This document shows, piece after piece, positions 1-16,955 of a stretch of 64,000 nt of DNA. Below the pieces are notes generated by a model, which was given only the letters and a program-made list of their open reading frames with translations, made no database searches and was not told the origin of the DNA. The position numbers and the translations under genes are program-made. The stretch is from Ostreococcus lucimarinus. Lineage: Eukaryota. Positions within the stretch are counted from its first letter, which is position 1, and every line of letters begins with the position of its first letter. The stretch lies in the NCBI GenBank assembly GCA_000092065.1, contig CP000593.1, one strand, 5' to 3'.

Positions 1-479
1 TGCGAATCTCGAGGAAAATCTCCGCGGTGGGGAAGATTGACAACATCTTTAAGTTGCGTGCCGGCGACATTCACAGCGTCGAGGTGACACTCTTGGACCC
101 CAAAACGCTGAAATCGGTGGGAATTTTACACTGTCGCATACGAATCAACATTTTGCAACCGAACATCGTCGTCGACGAGGGAAAGTCGAGCGAGATATCT
201 TTAGGCAAGCGCGTGGCGGTCTTGTACGAATCAATGAGCTCTGCCGCGTTACATATTCCTCGAGGAGCCGCCGATGCGGCGTCATCTACATCTCGCGCGG
301 CGTTGAAGCGAACGGCGACGTGTTTTGGTTGCTTCCGAGCGACCGCCGCCGACGTCGACGACGGCGAAGACGATTTCGGCATCGCCAGCCTGACAGCCCT
401 CACGTCAATAGAGCGCACTCGCGCCATGGGTGCCGAAAACGTGTCCGACTTCGGCACGGACGACGAAGACGCGAGTTAG
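1..479 (+). CDS. 3' fragment of a protein-coding gene running off the left edge (hypothetical protein)
   Basis: The reading frame is open from base 3 through the TAG at 477-479. The listed ORF 27..479 begins at an alternative GTG, so the gene most likely starts upstream of the window. No family recognised. It is convergent with the Sm-G gene. Confidence 0.3.
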   Translation, partial: RISRKISAVGKIDNIFKLRAGDIHSVEVTLLDPKTLKSVGILHCRIRINILQPNIVVDEGKSSEISLGKRVAVLYESMSSAALHIPRGAADAASSTSRAALKRTATCFGCFRATAADVDDGEDDFGIASLTALTSIERTRAMGAENVSDFGTDDEDAS

Positions 480-1123: not shown

Positions 1124-4100
1124 TTACATGTACTTTTTGGTCTTGCTCGTCGCGGCGGCGGACTCGGGATCGTCGGGCCAGAAGTGCTTGGGATATCGAC
1201 CGGCGAGCTCTTTGCGAACGTCCGTGCGATAGGCGTTGCGCCAGAACGACGCCAAGTCGCGCGTGACGGCTTGCGTGCGACCGGCCGGGCTGAGGAGGTG
1301 TAATTCGCAGTTGACGCCGCCCACGCGTGGAGTTTCGGTAGTGCCGAAGAACTCTTGGATGCGCGCGGCGACGACGGGAACGTCGCCGTCGTAGTCGACT
1401 TTGGCGTTGGATCCGCTGGGCAGGCGAACGGCGACGGGACAGGCGTCGTCCACGAGCTTGAGATGGTCGTACGTGCAGAAATGCGCCTTGACTAGGGATG
1501 CGACGTCAACTTTCGCGAGATCCGATTTAGACTGCGCGCCAGCGATCCACGGCGCGAGCCATTCACCGGCGGAGCTCAGCAAATTTTCTTCGGAGAGATT
1601 TGGAAACGTGGCGTCCACGCCTGAGCGATGGACATATTCCGCGCGCTTGAGCCACGATGTCGTCGCTTTGTTCAAACCGAAGGCGCTCGCGAGACCCATC
1701 TCGCGAATACCGTCTAACATCGCGCTCACAGTCGCCTCGGGATTGTCTTTCACCGAAAACGGAATCTCTCGAAGCACCAAAGATCCTACCGTCAAGCGCC
1801 TGCGCGCGAAGACTGATTTCGATGCGCTCGCCCAGAACACGTCGTCACTCTCCTTGGACAACGCTTCGTACAGCGCACCACCGCTTTCTAAGCATGCACG
1901 GTCGATCGGTGCCGCCAACCGCACGCGGTCGTTCCTCGATCCCGCGTTTCCCGCGCCATCGCCAGCTAATTCGACGACGACTAAAGTTTCATTCGCCTTG
2001 TCGCCAGAGCGAAGCAGCGCGTCATCCTTGTGCTCACTTCCCACGCTCGCGGCGCCGCCGCCAGAGAGTTGAAACGCCCCTCCTCGGTTTTTACGCGCGG
2101 CGACGCGATCAGGATAGGCGACAGCGAGCAGTAGGCCGGCTTCGCTTTCGCCCGCGCCGCACAAGAACGACCACACCACCGCCGAGGCGTCGCCCTCGCC
2201 GACACCCGGAGCGCAGAAGTCAGGATGCGAAGACGCTAAGCGGCGCAAGTTCCCGAGTAACTGCTCGGCAACTTGTTTCGCTTCGCGAACCGCCCGCTCG
2301 TCGACATTCCAGCTCGCACCGCTCGCGCCGCCCGTCGCGACGCTCACCGCCGCGTTTACGCTCGCGCGTTTGCCGCGAGGCGCGCCTTTGATTTTCTTCC
2401 CGCTCTTCGGGAGTTTGGTACCGATTGGAACGCGCGTCGGTTTCGTCGGGTCGACTTCTGGTTTCTCTTCATCCAAATCGCCCGCGCTTGCGAGTGGATC
2501 TTGACCCCAAAGCGCGCGAAGTCTACACCGAACGTCGAGAGGGGCGTCGCGTCCAGAGATCAAGTCGCGGTCGCCGATGACAGCTGCGAGTTGACACGCG
2601 AGTCGAGCGCTCTCAGCGCCGCGTGACGCGCCAAAAAGTAACATACGCGCCAGTCTTGGGTGCACTGGAAGCTCGGACATGATCGAACCCACGTCGCTAG
2701 GGACGAGTTTGCCTTCCTCCAACGCGCCGAGCTCGCGTAACAACCGTCTCGCCGCGATGAGCGGGCCTTCAGGCGGTGGGTCGAGCCAAGCCATGTCTGC
2801 CCCATCGCCGACGCCCCACGCTGCTAAATCTAACGCCACCGGAGTCAAGTCGGCTTGCAAAATCTCGGGTGTCGTGTCTGGCTGAAGTTTCGCGTTCGAG
2901 GCCTCGCTCCATAAACGATAGCACGTCCCAGGAGCGATGCGCCCGGCTCGCCCGCGCCTTTGATCCGCCGATGCGCGGGAGACACGAGTCGTCTCCAGTC
3001 GCGTCATACCCTTCCGAGCGTCGAACTTGGGCGTCTTGCACAATCCCGAGTCCACGACCACTTTCACGCCGTTGATGGTCAACGAAGACTCGGCGATTGG
3101 AGTGCTCACGACGACGCGACGCGTGCCCGGTTTCGACGGCGCGAGCGCCGCCGCCTGTTCTTCTTGCGATAGCGCGCCGTACAGTGGCAACGCCACGACA
3201 CCGTTCGGAAGCTCCCTTTGCAGATCTCGCACCACGCGATTGATCTCCGCCGCGCCCGGAAGAAAACACAGCACGTCGCCATCTGGGCACGCGCGCACGG
3301 CGTCCTTCACCGCGTTCGTCGTCGCGCGCTCGAGCTCACCCCATCCCGCGCCCGGCGCGCCCAAATAAATCGTCTCCACCGGATACGACCGCCCCTCCGA
3401 CACGATCACCGGCACCTCGGGCCCGTTCTCATCCCTCAACAACGCCGCCACGCGCGCGCCCATCTCCCCGAGCGTCGCGCTCATCACCAACAGTCTCAAA
3501 TCTGGCCGTATCGTCTGTTGCACCTCTCGACACAGCGCCAGCGCGACGTCCGCGTCTAAATTCCTCTCGTGAAACTCATCGAACACCACCAATCCCACGT
3601 CCCGCAGCTCTGGATCGTTTCTCAACCGCCGCGTCAGCACGCCCTCCGTCACCACCTCCACCCGCGTCGCCGCGCTCGCCCTTCGTTCAAATCGCACCTG
3701 ATACCCCACCGTTTCCCCCGCGCGTTCCCCCAACATCTCAGCCATCCGCATCGCCGCCGCTTTCGCCGCTAACCGTCGCGGTTCGAGCACGATCACTTTC
3801 CCCGCGCGTCCGTCGCCGCCGGCGCTCGCCGCCGCCAGCGCCGCCGCCAGCGGCATCACCGTCGTCTTCCCCGCCCCCGGCGGCGCCTGCATCACCGCGC
3901 GCGTCGCGCGCTGTTCGCATCGAACCCAATCGTTCGCCTCGTCAGTCCCGCGTCGCGCTTTCGCGCGCCGTCGACGCACCTCGAGCGCGTCCAAGCACGC
4001 GTCCACGACCGCGTCGATGGGCAACTTCGCGCGCGCTTTTCGCAGCGCCTCGCGCCGCGCGTCGTCTCCCGTCGCGCGCCGCGCGACGTCGCGACGCGCA

Positions 4101-10117: not shown

Positions 10118-12868
10118 ATGCACGAGCGATACGAATCGCGCGTCGTAGAACACACCGCCGCTCTTCGCGAGCAGAAAGCCCTCGCGAAGTTCCTAGCGCT
10201 TTTTAGTCACGTAGCCGTCAACTTTCGAGCGACGACGACTCAACCTCACAGCGCGACGCCGGTCGCGTCATGCCACCGCGCGCGCGCGCGATCCCTCACC
10301 CTAAAACCGAATCCGATCCGTTTGATCTCGCCGACGTCGCGAGCGCGCTCCAGGTGCGCGCGCGAGCGCTCGTTTTCTCAAGCTCAACTGTCCGCGCAAC
10401 GACCCGACTCGACGACTGACGACGAAACGACGGCGACTCGCGCGCAGGATGACGCGCGCGCGCACGTCGGTGAGTTCGTGGTGAACGAGTTCAAGCGGCA
10501 CGAAGCGTACGTGCGCGTGGAAGGGCTGCCGCTGGACGTCAAGTGCGAGGGCTGGGAGCGTCAGGGCAGAAGCGTGCACGGCGACCGCGTGCGAGTGGTA
10601 ATCGACGCGTGCGATCGCTGGGAGCGCGTCGTGGGGACTAAAGGCGAGATTTCAGACGAAGAGAGAGCGTTCGTAAGCGTAGAGGCGCTCGCATCGGTGT
10701 GTCGACGAGGGTGGCGACCGACGGGACGCGTCGTCCCGGATGCGCCGGTGACGCCGGCGACGCGGCGCTCGAGGATGGTCGGGAGGGTAGAAGTCCAAGA
10801 CGGCGGCGCGTCGCTCACATTCGTGCCCTTGGATCCAAAGTTGCCGAAGGGCCGCGTTTCTGAGTTTAGCGTGCCGAAGTCGTTACAGAAGACGCTGGCG
10901 TCGGGGGCGGAGGATGTCGAGGACGTCTTCGTGGCGGTGCGACTTAGAAAGTGGAGCAAAGGGATGTCGATGCCGATGATGGACATCATCGAGGTCGTGG
11001 GAAAAGGAAGTATGGGTGATGATTTAGATTTCATGACGAAAGTCATCGTCGCCGAGCACGGCATAGAGAGCGGAGATTTTAGCGCGGATGCGACGGCGTG
11101 TTTACCAAAGGTCAAAGTCGGCGATCACTGGAAAATTCCACCCGAGGAGATGAAACGGCGGGTGAATTTTAGGGAAAAGCTCGTTTTTAGCATAGACCCA
11201 CCGACGGCGCGAGATTTGGACGATGCGCTGAGCGTCCAAGTTTTGCCCGATGGTTGTCTAAACGTCGGCGTGCACATCGCCGACGTGTCACACTTCGTCA
11301 AGCCTGACACGCCGCTCGACGCCGAGGCGAGAGAACGAGGCACCACGACGTATCTCGTGCACACCATTTTTCCAATGTTGCCTAGACTTTTGTGCGAAAA
11401 TCTGTGCTCACTCAATCCTGGCGTTGAAAGATTAACGTTTTCGGTGGAATGGAAGATGACGCGTGGTGGCGTTGTGAAGAATGTCTCGTTCAAGCGTGGC
11501 GTGATAAAGAGCGCTGCGAAGCTGTCATACATTCACGTTCAAAATGTGATCGATGCTGGGTCGGACGTGAACAAAGCGAAAGAGGCACTAGATGATGTGA
11601 AGTTTTCAGGCGCGTACACCGCTGAAGACGTCATCGAGAGCATTTCAATCTTGAACGCAGCTGCGAAAGCGATGCGCAAGAAGAGATTTGAAGCCGGCGC
11701 TGTTCGATTGGATCAACCAAAGGTTGGTTTTGAGCTTAACGATGACTACGAGCCCGTGGGAGCTGCACCTTACGTCATTCGCGACAGCAATCGTCTTGTC
11801 GAGGAGTACATGCTACTCGCCAATATGTACGTCGCCGAGTTCATAGCCGAGATTTTCCCATCGCACGCCATGCTTCGATGCCATCCGCCGCCGAACGAAC
11901 GGAAGCTCATGGAGCTATCCACGTTCGCCAGCGAGCACGATATCGATATCGACATATCATCTTCGAAACGTCTTCACGACAGTTTGCGAGCAATAGCGCG
12001 CGACTCGCAAGATTTGTTTGACATCGTGCAGCTGCTCGCTACAAAGCCCATGCAACTGGCGAAATACTTTTGTACGGGGAGCGTGGACGAAGAGCAATGG
12101 CGGCATTACGCTCTCGCCGTTCCTTATTACACGCACTTTACGTCGCCTATTCGTCGATATCCGGATATCATTGTGCATCGTCTACTCGCAGCGGCGCTCG
12201 AGCACGCTGAGAGACAAGGGAAATCCAGTGAGCGAGACGTCGTAGAGAAACACAGTCTCATGACGCCGGAAATCTGTAGCGACGTCGCTGATCACTGCAA
12301 CGAGCGGAAACTCGCGGCGAAGTACGCCCAAGAGCGGAGTCAGCACTTGTTTCTCTGCAAATATCTGCAGAAAAATCCGGTCATCGCGCGTGCGATTGTA
12401 AGGCAACTCGGGCAGCAATACGTCGTCGCCTATCTCCCGGCGTTTGGATTCGAAATCAAAATTTACCTCGAAAAGCAGCGTCACGTGAAAGTCACACAAA
12501 AGGGATTTTCAAAGGGTCAATCATTGACGAAAGAATTAGACGTGACGTTAGACGTCCGTAAAGAGTGCGAAGAGGCCGCGAAAATCGCCGCTGCGGGTGC
12601 CGCCGCACTCGAGATTTTAGATCGATCGACGTACAAGAGCACGCTCAAGCACGCCAGAGGTTTGCGCGGGCGATGCCTCAATACTACGGAAGAGCAAGAG
12701 ACGTTCATAGATGATGCGGTCATGGACGACGCGCTGGTTTTACCTACTTCGATCAAGGCGCTGGATAAGATGCCTGTGATTTTATGCGTGCACAAAGAGT
12801 CGACAATTAAGTTTGAGATTTACGGCCACGTCCTCTTCTCAAATCCATTTTACACAGCTTTCGCTTAG
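10118..12868 (+). CDS. RNase II/RNB-family 3'-5' exoribonuclease, DIS3L2/SOV-like (no PIN domain)
   Basis: Cold-shock domains ([16 protein letters not shown]...[10 protein letters not shown]). The RNB catalytic motif [20 protein letters not shown]-terminal S1-like domain. No N-terminal PIN domain, so DIS3L2-type rather than Rrp44. Confidence 0.8.
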
Positions 12869-13273: not shown

Positions 13274-14533
13274 TCACATCTCCTCGTCCGTGGCTTCTTC
13301 AGAGTTCGACCCGGCGTCCGAGTTATCGGACAAGGGGAACTCCATGACACAAGATGGAGTCTGAGGGCGCATAGTGGCCTCCTTGGCGTCTGTAAACGAG
13401 AAGGCGTGCGCGGTCGACATAGACGCACCGCACAAGTTCGGAACGCTGATGGTGGATCGCAGACGATCGTTGCGTTCATACGTGTAATACGCAACGACAC
13501 CTTCCACGTCAAACTCTTGGCGAGTAGCTTGCGCGCGAGAGTATCCCGGCACAAATGCACCGTTGGCGAGCACTTCAGTGGCGACCTCAGCGGCGTTCAA
13601 ACCGTCGATGGAGATGGCGAACACCATCTTCCCGGGCTTGAACACGGAGGCGACCTTACGAACGTACGCGAAGGCATCGAGGTCTTGCACTTCCACGTTG
13701 GACAGCTCGCACGAGGCGTACGAGAATCCATCTTCGGGAGTGATGTGAATAGTGCTGAACTGGCCATCTAAAGAGCCTTTCTCGTGCAAGCCATTCATCG
13801 AATACCCGCACGGTTCGAAGACGTAGTCGTCGATGTCAAATTCCTCAAAAATCGATCGAATACCGCTGTCTGTGGTGGTTTGGGCCGAGCTCACAAAGGT
13901 TTCTTCTTTGCGATAGAAGTGTTCTTCGCAATGCGCGCGATTGAGATGCGTCATGCACACTTCGAGAGAAGCCTTCGGTCTGGCGTCTTGCAACGGGCAC
14001 GCGTCGCCAGAGACATACACGTGCCATTGCACACCCTTGAGTTTACTCCCCAAGATGTAAGACGACCCACCAGCCGCCGACAAGTTACCGAAGTGTTTCT
14101 CCAAAAACGCAGTCTCGTCATCGAACGAGGCGTGCAATTCGGGTTGCAAGTCAGGCTTGTCAAACGACGAGCGCGTAAACTTGACGCGTCGCGGTTCCAT
14201 GCCAACCTCGGCGGCGTACTTCAAGATGTTCGGCACACCCGCGAGAAGATGCGTGGTGCCACACGTCTTCAACACCAACTTGGTGGGAAAGACGAAGAGC
14301 GATGACTCCGACAAGACGTAGGCGTCAAATTTGTCATTCGAGCGAACGCTGACGATTTCACACCGCGCCGCCGTCATGCACTCATCGAGCTGCGCCCGCG
14401 CAATCTCCCTCAAGCCGCGCGGGTTCCTCTCGTTGAAGTGAAAGTCAATTTCAATGCGCTTCTCCGCGCCCTCAAAGTGCGGCGACGGGTAAATCCCGTC
14501 CACCGTCGTCACGGAAGCCGTCGCAGCAACCAT
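13274..14533 (-). CDS. S-adenosylmethionine decarboxylase proenzyme (AdoMetDC)
   Basis: N-terminal FEGAEKRIEIDF (compare FEGPEKLLEVWF). The processing site YVLSESSLFVFP (compare LSESSMFV, serine becoming pyruvoyl) is present, as is the core fold. The C-terminus has an acidic extension. Confidence 0.85.
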   Translation of the reverse strand: MVAATASVTTVDGIYPSPHFEGAEKRIEIDFHFNERNPRGLREIARAQLDECMTAARCEIVSVRSNDKFDAYVLSESSLFVFPTKLVLKTCGTTHLLAGVPNILKYAAEVGMEPRRVKFTRSSFDKPDLQPELHASFDDETAFLEKHFGNLSAAGGSSYILGSKLKGVQWHVYVSGDACPLQDARPKASLEVCMTHLNRAHCEEHFYRKEETFVSSAQTTTDSGIRSIFEEFDIDDYVFEPCGYSMNGLHEKGSLDGQFSTIHITPEDGFSYASCELSNVEVQDLDAFAYVRKVASVFKPGKMVFAISIDGLNAAEVATEVLANGAFVPGYSRAQATRQEFDVEGVVAYYTYERNDRLRSTISVPNLCGASMSTAHAFSFTDAKEATMRPQTPSCVMEFPLSDNSDAGSNSEEATDEEM

Positions 14534-14647
14534 GATACTATACCTCGTCGATACGAAATCTACGTATCCACGTTTCCCAACGTCAAATCAATTCTTCTAG
14601 TTGCGTTTTCCTCACGAGCACGCTACTCTTTAATCGATTTCACCGTG

Positions 14648-14803
14648 TCAGGAAGGTGATCTCGTCAAGTCCTGATACGCGCTGCTCGCGTACTTTTCGC
14701 ACCCCCACGGTCGCAAATCGGCGATGAAGCTCGATTCCGTTACCTTGTTCTGTTCCTCTTCGTCCCGTATATTATCGCTACTACCGTCCTCGGAGTCCAT
14801 CAT
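14648..14803 (-). promoter_or_regulatory. Conserved-peptide upstream ORF (51 codons) in the AdoMetDC 5' leader
   Basis: The minus-strand ORF ATGATGGAC...TCACCTTCCTGA encodes MMDSEDGSSDNIRDEEEQNKVTESSFIADLRPWGCEKYASSAYQDLTRSPS*. It ends 114 nt upstream of the AdoMetDC ATG. It resembles the plant AdoMetDC small-uORF peptide (MMES...SIEDVRPNGGIKKFKSSVYSNCSKRPS*): MM-D/E-S start, S-x-I-x-D-L/V-R-P-x-G...K...SS-x-Y...RPS/SPS-stop. At 51 codons it falls below the ORF-track size cutoff. Confidence 0.6.
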
Positions 14804-15551
14804 CTTCGTCGTCGATTCGCGGCCTTCGCCTTTTTTCGTGTTTTCGAGCTTCTCGCCCTTTTATTCCCTCACCCGAGAGAGCGTACGAGTTTGACTCCTT
14901 CGCCGCGCCTAAACTTTACTGTTGACCGTCCCTCGTTCACGCCGATCGACCTCTCGCCGTTCGACGCGCGCGCGTTATCCGTCGCGACGCTCGCGGCCGA
15001 CAATAATCAAACTTTATCACCGAACGCGCGCGTGCTCGCCCGTCCTTCGTCCCGCGCGCTGACCGCAACGCGTTTTACGATCGATTAATCTTTCGATCGG
15101 CGCCGCGATGAAAACGCGTGCGCGAGCTTTTATTCGCCTCGTGCGTCGCGCGCGAGGTGCGTCGCGCTGGAACGAGCGTGCGTTCGGGCGCGAGGATTTT
15201 GTTTCGCGACGTGCGTCGGCCGTGCGGGTGCGCGGGCGCGTGTGCGTCGAGTGGTGGCGCGCGATGCGACGCGGCGGCGACGCGACGTCGACGCGGTTCG
15301 GCGATCGGGTATCCGATTAGGGCTTTCGAGACCACAGGCGAGGCAGAGGCGACGGCGAAGGAGAGATCGAGGGCGCGACGCGCGCGCGATGACGGGTGAA
15401 AAGAGAACGTAAGTGATGTCGTGGTATTAAGAATGAGATCTAAGCGTGGATGAGGCGTGAAAACGAATCGTGCGAACGAACGAACGAACGAACGAAGGCG
15501 CGCGACGTCGCGCCGAGTGGACGACGAGCCGGCGACGAGCGATTTCGTCGC

Positions 15552-16955
15552 TTAGATGGCCTTGTACTCAACCTTGGTGATCTTACCCAACATGACGGCG
15601 GTGTTACCGTCCAAGAAAGCGATGCGGGAAAGACCTTCGCACTTCTTGAAGGAGTCGACGACGAGCGGGTGGACCGGCTCGAAGACGCACTCGGCGACTT
15701 CGTTGGACTTCAACGACATCGGGGACTCGAGCTTCTTACCGCCGGTTTCCTTGCCAACCTTGAAGTTGAGCGCGGTCAACTTGCACGCGGAGCGGCCGCA
15801 TCGGACGAAACCGATGGGGCTGTAGCCCGCCTTGAGTTCACCCGGAATGTCCAAGGTTTGGATTTGCGCGGTGAACTCCTTGCACGGGGCGAGGGAGGTG
15901 TCCTTCTTGTAGATCATCACGTCACCGGTGCGCGGCATGTTGAGCTTGTCGAGACCCTTGATGTTCATACCGACGTTGTCACCCGGCGCGGCGGCTTCGA
16001 CGCGCTTGTGGTGCATTTCGACGGTGAACACCTTACCACCGCACGGGTTGGAGGAGGTGTGGGTCGGGAGGAAGACGACGTCTTCACCCGGCTTGACGAG
16101 ACCTTGCTCGACGCGACCGGCGAGGACATCACCGACACCCTTGATCTTGTAGACACCGGAAATCGGAAGGCGCATGGCGGCTTCCGTGTTGCGGTCCGGC
16201 TTGTCGACCATGTCGTTGAGGACGTTGAGGAGGCAGTCGATGTGGAACTTCTTGCCGCCGCCCATGTAGTCTTCGACGTCGACGCCGTTCCACCACGGCA
16301 TCTTCGCGGACTTGGACAACAAGTTGTCGCCGTTCCAGCCAGAGATCGGGAGGACCGGGACGCTCTTCTCGACGTAATCCTTCTTCCAGCCGACCTTGAT
16401 CAACATGTTCTTCATTTCGTTGCGAATTTCTTCGTAACGCTCTTGCTTGTAGCCAGCCATGTCGCAATCCATCTTGTTGATGCCGCAAATGAGCTGCTTG
16501 ACGCCGAGCAAGTTGAGAAGACGCGCGTGCTGGCGCGTTTGGCCTTGGACTTCACCAGCCTTGTGGTTACCCTTTTGGATGGCGACCGTGAAGTTACCGT
16601 CCGCCGGCACCATGAGAAGCGCCACATCGGCTTGCGCCGCGCCGGAAATCATGTTCTTGATGAAATCGCGGTGACCCGGGGCGTCGATGATGGTGTAGTG
16701 CCACTTGTCCGTGAAGAATTCCTTGGTCGTGCAAGAAATCGTCACACCACGCTCACGCTCTTCCTTTTGGCGATCCATGTAGAACGCGAACGCGAAAGAA
16801 GACTTACCGAGCGCATCGGCTTCGGCGCGAAGCTTTTCGAGTTCGCGCTCCGGGATACCCCCGAGCTCGAATAACAAGCGACCGGTCGTCGTCGACTTAC
16901 CGGAATCGACGTGACCGCAGATCACGATGGAAAGATGTTCCTTGCCTTCAGACAT
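15552..16955 (-). CDS. Elongation factor-like GTPase (EFL), EF-1alpha paralog
   Basis: GHVDSGKSTTTG, DAPGH, NKMD. EFL-specific stretches FAFAFYMDRQKEERERGVTI and TTKEFFT stand where EF-1alpha has [20 protein letters not shown]. The gene is 467 aa with a real ATG. Confidence 0.85.
   Translation of the reverse strand: MSEGKEHLSIVICGHVDSGKSTTTGRLLFELGGIPERELEKLRAEADALGKSSFAFAFYMDRQKEERERGVTISCTTKEFFTDKWHYTIIDAPGHRDFIKNMISGAAQADVALLMVPADGNFTVAIQKGNHKAGEVQGQTRQHARLLNLLGVKQLICGINKMDCDMAGYKQERYEEIRNEMKNMLIKVGWKKDYVEKSVPVLPISGWNGDNLLSKSAKMPWWNGVDVEDYMGGGKKFHIDCLLNVLNDMVDKPDRNTEAAMRLPISGVYKIKGVGDVLAGRVEQGLVKPGEDVVFLPTHTSSNPCGGKVFTVEMHHKRVEAAAPGDNVGMNIKGLDKLNMPRTGDVMIYKKDTSLAPCKEFTAQIQTLDIPGELKAGYSPIGFVRCGRSACKLTALNFKVGKETGGKKLESPMSLKSNEVAECVFEPVHPLVVDSFKKCEGLSRIAFLDGNTAVMLGKITKVEYKAI

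Follow-up and report, generated by a model that had tools for sequence, protein, structure and literature searches.

A probable Ostreococcus ortholog of the plant AdoMetDC leader peptide, encoded by a single upstream ORF

S-adenosylmethionine decarboxylase (AdoMetDC) catalyzes the committed step to spermidine and spermine, and feedback on its synthesis through a leader peptide is a textbook example of a nascent peptide that senses a metabolite. Does the AdoMetDC gene of the alga Ostreococcus lucimarinus carry the upstream open reading frame (uORF) that serves this purpose in land plants, and how much of the plant circuit comes with it? An initial annotation of a 64,000-nucleotide stretch of contig CP000593.1 (GenBank assembly GCA_000092065.1; the window, whose positions are used throughout) had described a ‘plant-type’ conserved uORF ahead of this gene. 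Here, we compared the locus with its algal and plant relatives, and we conclude that the uORF is probably the Ostreococcus ortholog of the conserved-peptide uORF of green-lineage AdoMetDC mRNAs, for which homology would predict polyamine-dependent ribosome arrest.

The main ORF (13274..14533, minus strand; AUG context agtatcATGg) encodes an AdoMetDC proenzyme of 419 aa (Pfam PF01536, E 2.5e-96) that is 82% identical to O. tauri AdoMetDC (CAL56417 / XP_003082560). Upstream on the same strand, the uORF (14648..14803) runs from an ATG at 14803 to a TGA at 14650..14648 and specifies, in 51 sense codons, the peptide MMDSEDGSSDNIRDEEEQNKVTESSFIADLRPWGCEKYASSAYQDLTRSPS. These coordinates, the codon count, the peptide and the distance of 114 nt to the AdoMetDC start were all given exactly in the initial annotation, as judged by the sequence and the ORF list. 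The uORF opens with tandem start codons, AUGAUG (14798..14803; contexts acgacgaagATGatgg). The first AUG of the pair has A at −3 and A at +4, and the second (14800..14798, reading AUGAUGG) has A at −3 and G at +4; the lone start codon of each ortholog aligns with this second AUG. All uORF starts of Ostreococcus-clade orthologs combine a purine at −3 with G at +4. Thus, the doubled methionine that had been counted as a resemblance to plant peptides is a coincidence, as all algal orthologs and most plant peptides have a single M. Between the uORF stop and the main AUG lies an AUG-free spacer of 114 nt (14534..14647), with a G+C content of 43% vs. 62% for the window. The locus turns up very often in marine metagenomes (L003-L007 and L083-L092 are 100% identical), and the 90% cluster of its AdoMetDC includes NCBI, Tara and MMETSP members on chromosome-sized contigs.

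Two contigs, L101 and L102 (JGI 3300016815, Ga0186384), bear on whether the uORF is part of the AdoMetDC transcript. [quoted passage not shown] Positions 10354..10447, which form a 94-nt GT..AG intron in the RNB-domain gene next door, are missing from L102, and the contigs therefore derive from RNA. Their protein is also catalogued under MMETSP as a transcript, and they belong to the same JGI series as a Mantoniella MMETSP transcript (L103). This is good evidence that the uORF lies inside the transcribed AdoMetDC leader, with the assembly being unstranded and the contig 5′ end at 15255 marking the extent of coverage rather than a mapped cap site. A transcript start downstream of 14803, which the initial annotation had named as the outcome that would undo its reading, is not what these contigs indicate.

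The part of the leader that these contigs cover upstream of the uORF (14804..15255, minus strand) is AUG-free. The nearest ATG on this strand, at 15593, is 790 nt upstream of the uORF and falls inside the preceding EF-1-alpha-like gene, which has its stop at 15552. With no ATG between 15593 and 14803, any transcript that starts in the intergenic region has the uORF AUG as its first, and the earlier statement that there is no tiny overlapping uORF was borne out. The 748-nt intergenic region contains 0 ATG vs. 6 CAT, where dinucleotide-preserving shuffles expect 1.9 ATG (P about 0.1-0.2); the absence is thus not significant alone for one locus, and ATG depletion was dropped as evidence of a long leader. 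Many metagenome contigs break at the 3′ end of the preceding gene; a repeat at this site was considered and set aside, with no second copy found within the window.

We next compared the uORF with its counterparts in other Mamiellophyceae. A database search with the 51-aa peptide was uninformative on conservation, returning only three gene calls, all from the same species (P0003 is frameshifted and P0002 is chimeric), and the leaders of relatives were therefore obtained via the AdoMetDC protein. One metagenome scan with the AdoMetDC alignment gave 80 loci, ranging from 100% to 44% protein identity. Every Ostreococcus-clade leader recovered carried an in-frame uORF counterpart, contrary to the lack of a conserved in-frame peptide that the initial annotation had put forward as a possible refutation. 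The peptides of this clade have a common core, [IV]A[DE]LRP.[GE], which is mostly followed by K[YF]A..Y.D..R.PS and the stop (e.g. MDCEDGSSDNIFRVQAEVDEVSGSALIADLRPWGWEAYADRAYYDLTRPPS in L008 and MDLEDGSSDYIREEEEHNRVTESSLVAELRPWGTVKFANAEYQDLTRSPS in L009). The window peptide ends in R-S-P-S-stop, with proline in the penultimate position; the C-terminus is CARSPS in the 56-residue form of L024, LTRPPS in the O. tauri-like L109, and CARHPR or CARHLR in the spliced forms of L016, L020 and L023. The penultimate proline is thus kept in most relatives but not all, the ending of L023 being H-L-R. A UGA stop is invariant across all Mamiellophyceae orthologs examined, and in the stop-context table of these orthologs the next two nucleotides are CA in all but one group, as in the window (14646..14650, minus strand) and in the O. 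tauri-like locus (TGA CAC). The Mamiellophyceae peptides also share a second conserved motif near the N-terminus, the acidic D-G-S-S-D-N-I, which has no plant counterpart.

The uORF is more than a chance ORF, and purifying selection acts on its peptide. We aligned eight Ostreococcus-clade sequences, seven of which entered the dN/dS comparison, with the O. tauri-like locus being added later. Length differences among the orthologs preserve the reading frame. Pairwise dN/dS (Nei-Gojobori), a test that the initial annotation had proposed, was mostly 0.07-0.48, well below 1, at dS values of about 1 to more than 2 that are near saturation; the two closest orthologs are separated by 6 synonymous and 2 nonsynonymous changes. 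Outside the clade, an in-frame counterpart whose core has the form D[LI]R.[WG]G (DLRPWG in the window) is retained in Micromonas-like leaders, in Bathycoccus prasinos (L045, whose AdoMetDC matches the NCBI Bathycoccus prasinos protein at 99.6%), in Mantoniella and in three freshwater green-algal leaders. The Bathycoccus and Mantoniella relatives keep a D[IL]R..G core without the P-S ending, and so the arrest module is not uniform in Mamiellophyceae. A guided search of the Bathycoccus-like group for a spliced C-terminus ending in P-S found none; in this group, the uORF seems either to have a different ending or to be spliced to the main ORF.

How does the algal peptide relate to the leader peptide of land plants? 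Our plant set (A2) comprised 21 angiosperm leader peptides found with an Arabidopsis-like query, in a search where every match carries PF08132 and several bear the name ‘S-adenosyl-l-methionine decarboxylase leader peptide’. In hhalign, a profile of 12 Mamiellophyceae peptides (A3) matched this set with a probability of 95.4% (E 1.7e-8, score 40.0), over 28 columns that reach both C-termini and place window residues 24-51 on plant positions 23-51. In contrast, 300 column shuffles of A3 scored 8.4 on average (sd 2.2), with a maximum of 17.1. When the window peptide was compared with 24,736 Pfam models, the sole match was PF08132, AdoMetDC_leader (E 0.038, 14.3 bits), with residues 27-51 on profile positions 26-51 of 51; the same model matched 4 of the 12 algal peptides (best E 0.0017). 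At 14.3 bits, the window peptide lies below the gathering threshold of PF08132 (25 bits, a whole-protein score) and is therefore not a member of the family in Pfam’s sense. Judged by these alignments, it is a distant but real homolog of the land-plant leader peptide, and the alignment with plant peptides that the initial annotation had called for thus came out in its favor, C-terminus to C-terminus.

The resemblance is confined to one end of the peptide. Over the C-terminal 28 residues, the plant and window sequences share I-x-D-[LV]-R-P-x-G ... K-[YF]-x-S-S-x-Y-x-[DN]-x-x-[RK]-x-P-S-stop; after R-P, the window has W where plants have N/H/F, and after G it is one residue shorter. Residues 27-51 (IADLRPWGCEKYASSAYQDLTRSPS; 14651..14725, minus strand), which are covered by both the PF08132 and the hhalign alignments, form the conserved block; among conserved-peptide uORFs, conservation at the C-terminus is the mark of ‘class I’ (PMC9305500). 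The N-terminal halves are not alignable, being acidic in the window (MMDSEDGSSDNIRDEEEQ) and basic, Ser-rich and K-rich in plants (MESKGGKKKSSSS). In other respects the layout is close to that of the land-plant small uORF (HG3; Arabidopsis AdoMetDC1/SAMDC1), which also stands upstream of the same enzyme gene. It has 48-55 codons vs. 51 in the window, the spacer to the main AUG is 116-119 nt at Arabidopsis-type loci vs. 114 nt, and two angiosperm examples end in TCC TGA, with the same UGA stop.

An intron provides an independent sign of common descent. In the Ostreococcus-like L016, L020 and L023, a phase-0 GT..AG intron separates Y-x-[DN] from the last six codons of the uORF, and in Micromonas-like groups the corresponding site also holds an intron, whose splicing is confirmed by the cDNA-like contigs L031 and L032, which lack both the uORF intron and a main-ORF intron relative to the genomic L061 and L074. 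In Spirodela (duckweed), an intron interrupts the uORF at the same codon boundary (AAYSN|gtaagt...cag|CVRKPS-stop), and three angiosperm gene calls read into the unspliced intron at this point (‘...YSNV...’). Arabidopsis SAMDC genes have introns confined to the uORF and leader part (PMC5745906). The uORF intron is absent from the window species, from L008, L009, L012, L024 and L109, and from the Arabidopsis-type locus L104. Thus, land plants and relatives of the window species have the uORF intron position in common, which is a sign, separate from the peptide, that the algal and angiosperm uORFs descend from one element.

The window lacks the second component of the plant system. In the land-plant dual-uORF circuit, a tiny uORF of 2-3 codons overlaps the small-uORF start by one nucleotide, as at L104, where the tiny uORF ATGAGATTATGA overlaps that start. 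Since there is no ATG for 790 nt upstream, the window element falls outside the dual-uORF type, and the leaky-scanning switch of the plant model cannot operate. Nearly all Mamiellophyceae loci likewise have no ATG within 400 nt upstream of the uORF. The label ‘plant-type’ therefore stands for the homologous peptide and the shared enzyme gene, but not for the tiny uORF.

AdoMetDC uORFs of green algae are already known, and the window element is the same as those described from Chlamydomonas, Volvox, Ulva, Chlorella and prasinophytes in PMC2811004 and PMC2075485. Hayden and Jorgensen (2007; PMC2075485) found members of the HG3 uORF group in both Chlamydomonas and Ulva. Ivanov, Atkins and Michael (2010; PMC2811004) reported AdoMetDC leader uORFs in green algae, prasinophytes among them without the tiny uORF, and a penultimate proline as the rule; the window fits all three statements. 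The tiny uORF of Chlamydomonas and Volvox is longer and overlapping, in contrast to the window, which has none. At the Volvox locus, a simple motif pattern had no match within 1.5 kb upstream. Because the green-algal uORF is already in these two papers, the origin before the chlorophyte/streptophyte split proposed in the initial annotation is not new. In the published texts consulted, we found no statement on the shared intron position or the conserved stop context.

What the uORF does can be proposed from its relatives. The plant homolog represses in a sequence-dependent manner and acts in cis (PMC2811004), and it mediates polyamine-responsive arrest at the uORF stop codon (PMC5587730, citing Hanfrey 2005 and Uchiyama-Kadokura 2014). 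From homology to Arabidopsis AdoMetDC1, and by analogy with the mammalian AdoMetDC uORF that encodes MAGDIS, polyamine-dependent nascent-peptide arrest at the UGA is likely in Ostreococcus as well. The concentration of conservation in the last 25 residues, together with the invariant UGA and the CA after it, gives indirect support for arrest of the kind seen with the Arabidopsis AdoMetDC1 S-uORF, bZIP11 uORF2 and MAGDIS, in which the stop codon is in the A site and the C-terminal peptide is required. Most scanning ribosomes would translate the uORF. With the stop codon in the A site, residues 27-51 would occupy or adjoin the ribosomal exit tunnel, and at high polyamine levels this nascent C-terminal segment would block termination at the UGA. 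The arrested ribosome would then stop those that follow and prevent reinitiation at the AdoMetDC AUG 114 nt downstream, and it may also expose the AdoMetDC mRNA to decay. At low polyamine levels, termination would be completed, and 40S subunits could rescan the short, AUG-free, A+U-rich spacer and reinitiate at 14533. Reinitiation after a uORF of 51 codons is generally inefficient, which counts against an arrest/reinitiation model that has neither a tiny uORF nor leaky scanning.

With no tiny uORF to divert ribosomes, polyamine sensing would depend on the arrest step alone, as in MAGDIS. That system is an analogue of the one-uORF design, in which the peptide of a single uORF causes sequence-dependent, polyamine-modulated stalling at termination and blocks the main ORF, although the MAGDIS uORF is six codons long and sits 14 nt from the cap, compared with 51 codons in the window. 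The fungal arginine attenuator peptide (arg-2 / CPA1 uORF) is likewise a conserved nascent peptide that halts ribosomes in response to its pathway’s end product, but it is unrelated in sequence, senses a different metabolite, and its arrest is not strictly linked to termination. The arrest-only, single-uORF design is the simpler one and presumably ancestral. A fuller version of this history is tentative and, in our estimate, slightly less probable than its opposite: the ancestral Viridiplantae polyamine sensor may have had one uORF and worked by termination arrest alone, with a phase-0 intron six codons before the stop that was present in the common ancestor of prasinophytes and angiosperms and was lost later in this Ostreococcus lineage.

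Does the conserved peptide have to respond to polyamines? It might instead be a peptide-dependent repressor that acts constitutively or senses another signal, setting a low basal level of AdoMetDC translation without feedback. The window has no tiny uORF to provide the switch that land plants employ (PMC2811004), and nearly every ribosome should translate the uORF, given its strong start context; moreover, many conserved-peptide uORFs cause no arrest under standard in vitro conditions (PMC5587730). We nonetheless consider it unlikely, as the plant homolog and the unrelated MAGDIS are both found on AdoMetDC mRNA and both respond to polyamines, and as the conserved C-terminal block is the very part that is homologous to the plant peptide.

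Polyamine-dependent arrest in cis can also be set against a function in trans, in which the mRNA is bicistronic and the product of the uORF is a free-standing micropeptide conserved for its own sake. Conserved bicistronic loci that use leaky scanning are reported to be pervasive in green algae (PMC11892635), and such a product would fit with the purifying selection that the peptide is under and with its acidic motif near the N-terminus, which has no plant counterpart. Yet from prasinophytes to angiosperms the uORF is invariably linked to AdoMetDC; it is conserved above all at its very C-terminus and stop codon, in the manner of arrest peptides; its plant homolog works in cis; and the strong AUG context speaks against leaky scanning. 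We therefore regard a micropeptide as quite improbable here.

More doubtful still is that the uORF is a 5′ coding exon, spliced or read through onto AdoMetDC to give an N-terminally extended enzyme. Two NCBI models of Bathycoccus prasinos (P0165 and P0170) do join the uORF peptide to the enzyme after ‘...FFDVLT’, HG3-like fusion-type sequences have been reported in angiosperms (PMC7106846), and in the window the uORF and the main ORF share one frame (270 nt apart). However, the window spacer contains four stop codons in this frame and no intron, and the stops exclude a read-through fusion there. L101 and L102 run colinear with the genome through all three segments, and we rejected both forms of fusion in the window on these two grounds. 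Spliced cDNA-like contigs of relatives also retain the uORF stop and a separate main-ORF AUG. Spacers of the Ostreococcus-clade orthologs (64-141 nt) are all AUG-free and mostly not multiples of three, and those of the spliced Micromonas-like cDNAs (110 and 116 nt) are AUG-free. Finally, a chance ORF, or conservation due to RNA structure instead of the peptide, can be dismissed as extremely improbable: the leader folds slightly better than its shuffles (z = −1.98), which is not unusually structured, and the lack of upstream ATGs is compatible with chance at a single locus (P about 0.1-0.2), but the peptide is kept while synonymous sites are saturated, the length differences preserve the frame, the profile matches the plant peptide, and no Rfam family matches the window, so that structure was rejected as the cause.

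For the biology of the element, the practical value of these results is modest and existing knowledge is unchanged. Small possible additions to the known element are the intron position common to algae and angiosperms, the UGA-CA stop context, and the acidic motif near the N-terminus; if unreported, the first two of these would be further features that define it. The locus also exposes a blind spot of annotation, in that gene callers miss the uORF or fuse it wrongly, e.g. in the Bathycoccus models, and it suggests Ostreococcus as a simple test bed. What the window offers is a clean algal example of the single-uORF form, with the uORF AUG first and in a strong context, a conserved C-terminus and UGA, and a short AUG-free spacer. 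This supports the published view of a peptide sensor older than the chlorophyte/streptophyte split, with the tiny uORF as a later addition. If the one-uORF arrangement is indeed ancestral, Ostreococcus, which can be transformed, would be a minimal system for arrest without the tiny-uORF layer.

A phase-0 intron splits the uORF 6 or 7 codons upstream of its stop codon, at corresponding sites in Ostreococcus-like algae, Micromonas-like algae and angiosperms. It spans about 2227..2339 in the Ostreococcus-like locus L016, recurs in L020 and L023 (also Ostreococcus-like), in the genomic Micromonas-like loci L061 and L074 and in others, and occupies about 2632..2728 in genomic DNA of the Spirodela (duckweed) locus L106. 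Three angiosperm gene calls (P0330, P0252 and P0304) are left unspliced here and read '...YSNV'. The uORF of the window has no intron at the corresponding junction (14669/14668, minus strand); we conclude that the intron was lost from the window species and from several of its close relatives. In a literature search of limited reach, we found no published statement that this intron position is common to algal and angiosperm uORFs. In three Micromonas-like loci (L073, L076 and L077), the uORF intron is 102-114 nt long, a multiple of three, and free of stop codons. The FPGRPPS-stop ending would therefore be the same whether or not the intron is removed, with a predicted peptide of 57 residues from spliced mRNA versus 91-95 from unspliced mRNA.

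The C-terminus of the peptide varies in two further genera. The Bathycoccus prasinos uORF (L045 and relatives) keeps the DIRFWG core but lacks the terminal P-S, closing with ...FFDVLTVRRKCA-stop. In NCBI gene models from this species (P0165 and P0170), the uORF is spliced to the AdoMetDC ORF after '...FFDVLT', giving 'proteins' of 491 and 523 aa; the fusion is either an error of annotation or a genuine fused isoform. In a Mantoniella MMETSP transcript (L103), whose 906-nt leader opens with a purine-rich repeat, the uORF at 649 ends in ...GYADLEFGSYCCGA-stop and is followed immediately, in frame, by R-P-P-S; variant splicing or a displaced stop codon may explain this ending.

At the other end of the peptide lies a second conserved motif, the acidic, serine-rich E-D-G-S-S-D-N-I (residues 5-12; 14767..14790, minus strand, in the window), which is common to the Ostreococcus, Micromonas-like and Bathycoccus peptides, with the variants S-D-S-S-D-N and N-S-D-N-I-Y. 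In contrast, the plant AdoMetDC leader peptides have a basic N-terminus and no counterpart of this acidic motif.

Every Mamiellophyceae ortholog compared terminates the uORF with UGA, and in all groups but one the stop is followed directly by C-A (14650..14646, minus strand, for the window stop and these two bases), while the remainder of the spacer diverges. A C at +4 generally disfavours efficient termination. In the freshwater algal loci L065, L079 and L082 the uORF stop is UAA, again with CA after it.

Between the stop codon of the preceding gene and the uORF AUG, the 748 nt of the window (14804..15551, minus strand) hold 0 ATG and 6 CAT triplets; for this single locus, the absence of ATG is not significant against dinucleotide shuffles. 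Almost all Mamiellophyceae loci are likewise ATG-free within 400 nt upstream of the uORF. In L065, a 12-codon upstream ORF (positions 8..46) begins 28 nt ahead of the conserved uORF and runs into it, an arrangement similar to the tiny uORF of Chlamydomonas and Volvox, which is described as longer and overlapping.

The upstream neighbour of AdoMetDC is an EF-1-alpha-like GTPase gene (15552..16955, minus strand); its gene calls in the metagenome loci L083-L086 carry GTP_EFTU domains (Pfam). For the window species, many contigs from metagenomes and from Logan stop some 1050-1160 nt upstream of the AdoMetDC start codon, a point that coincides with the 3' end of this gene or lies just within it, and the window contains no repeat that would account for the breaks. 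Elsewhere, the 94 nt at 10354..10447 (plus strand; GTGCGC...GCGCAG) are missing from the RNA-derived contig L102, which makes them an intron of the convergent RNB/Dis3-like gene, close to its 5' end. Because 94 nt is not a whole number of codons, the 916-codon ORF listed from 10118 gives a wrong N-terminus for the product.

Two database 'proteins' that match the uORF (P0002 and P0003) were rejected as assembly artefacts: P0002 is chimeric, its signal-peptide-like N-terminus being unrelated to the uORF, and P0003 is a frameshifted copy. They are a reminder that short uORFs are miscalled in metagenome gene sets.
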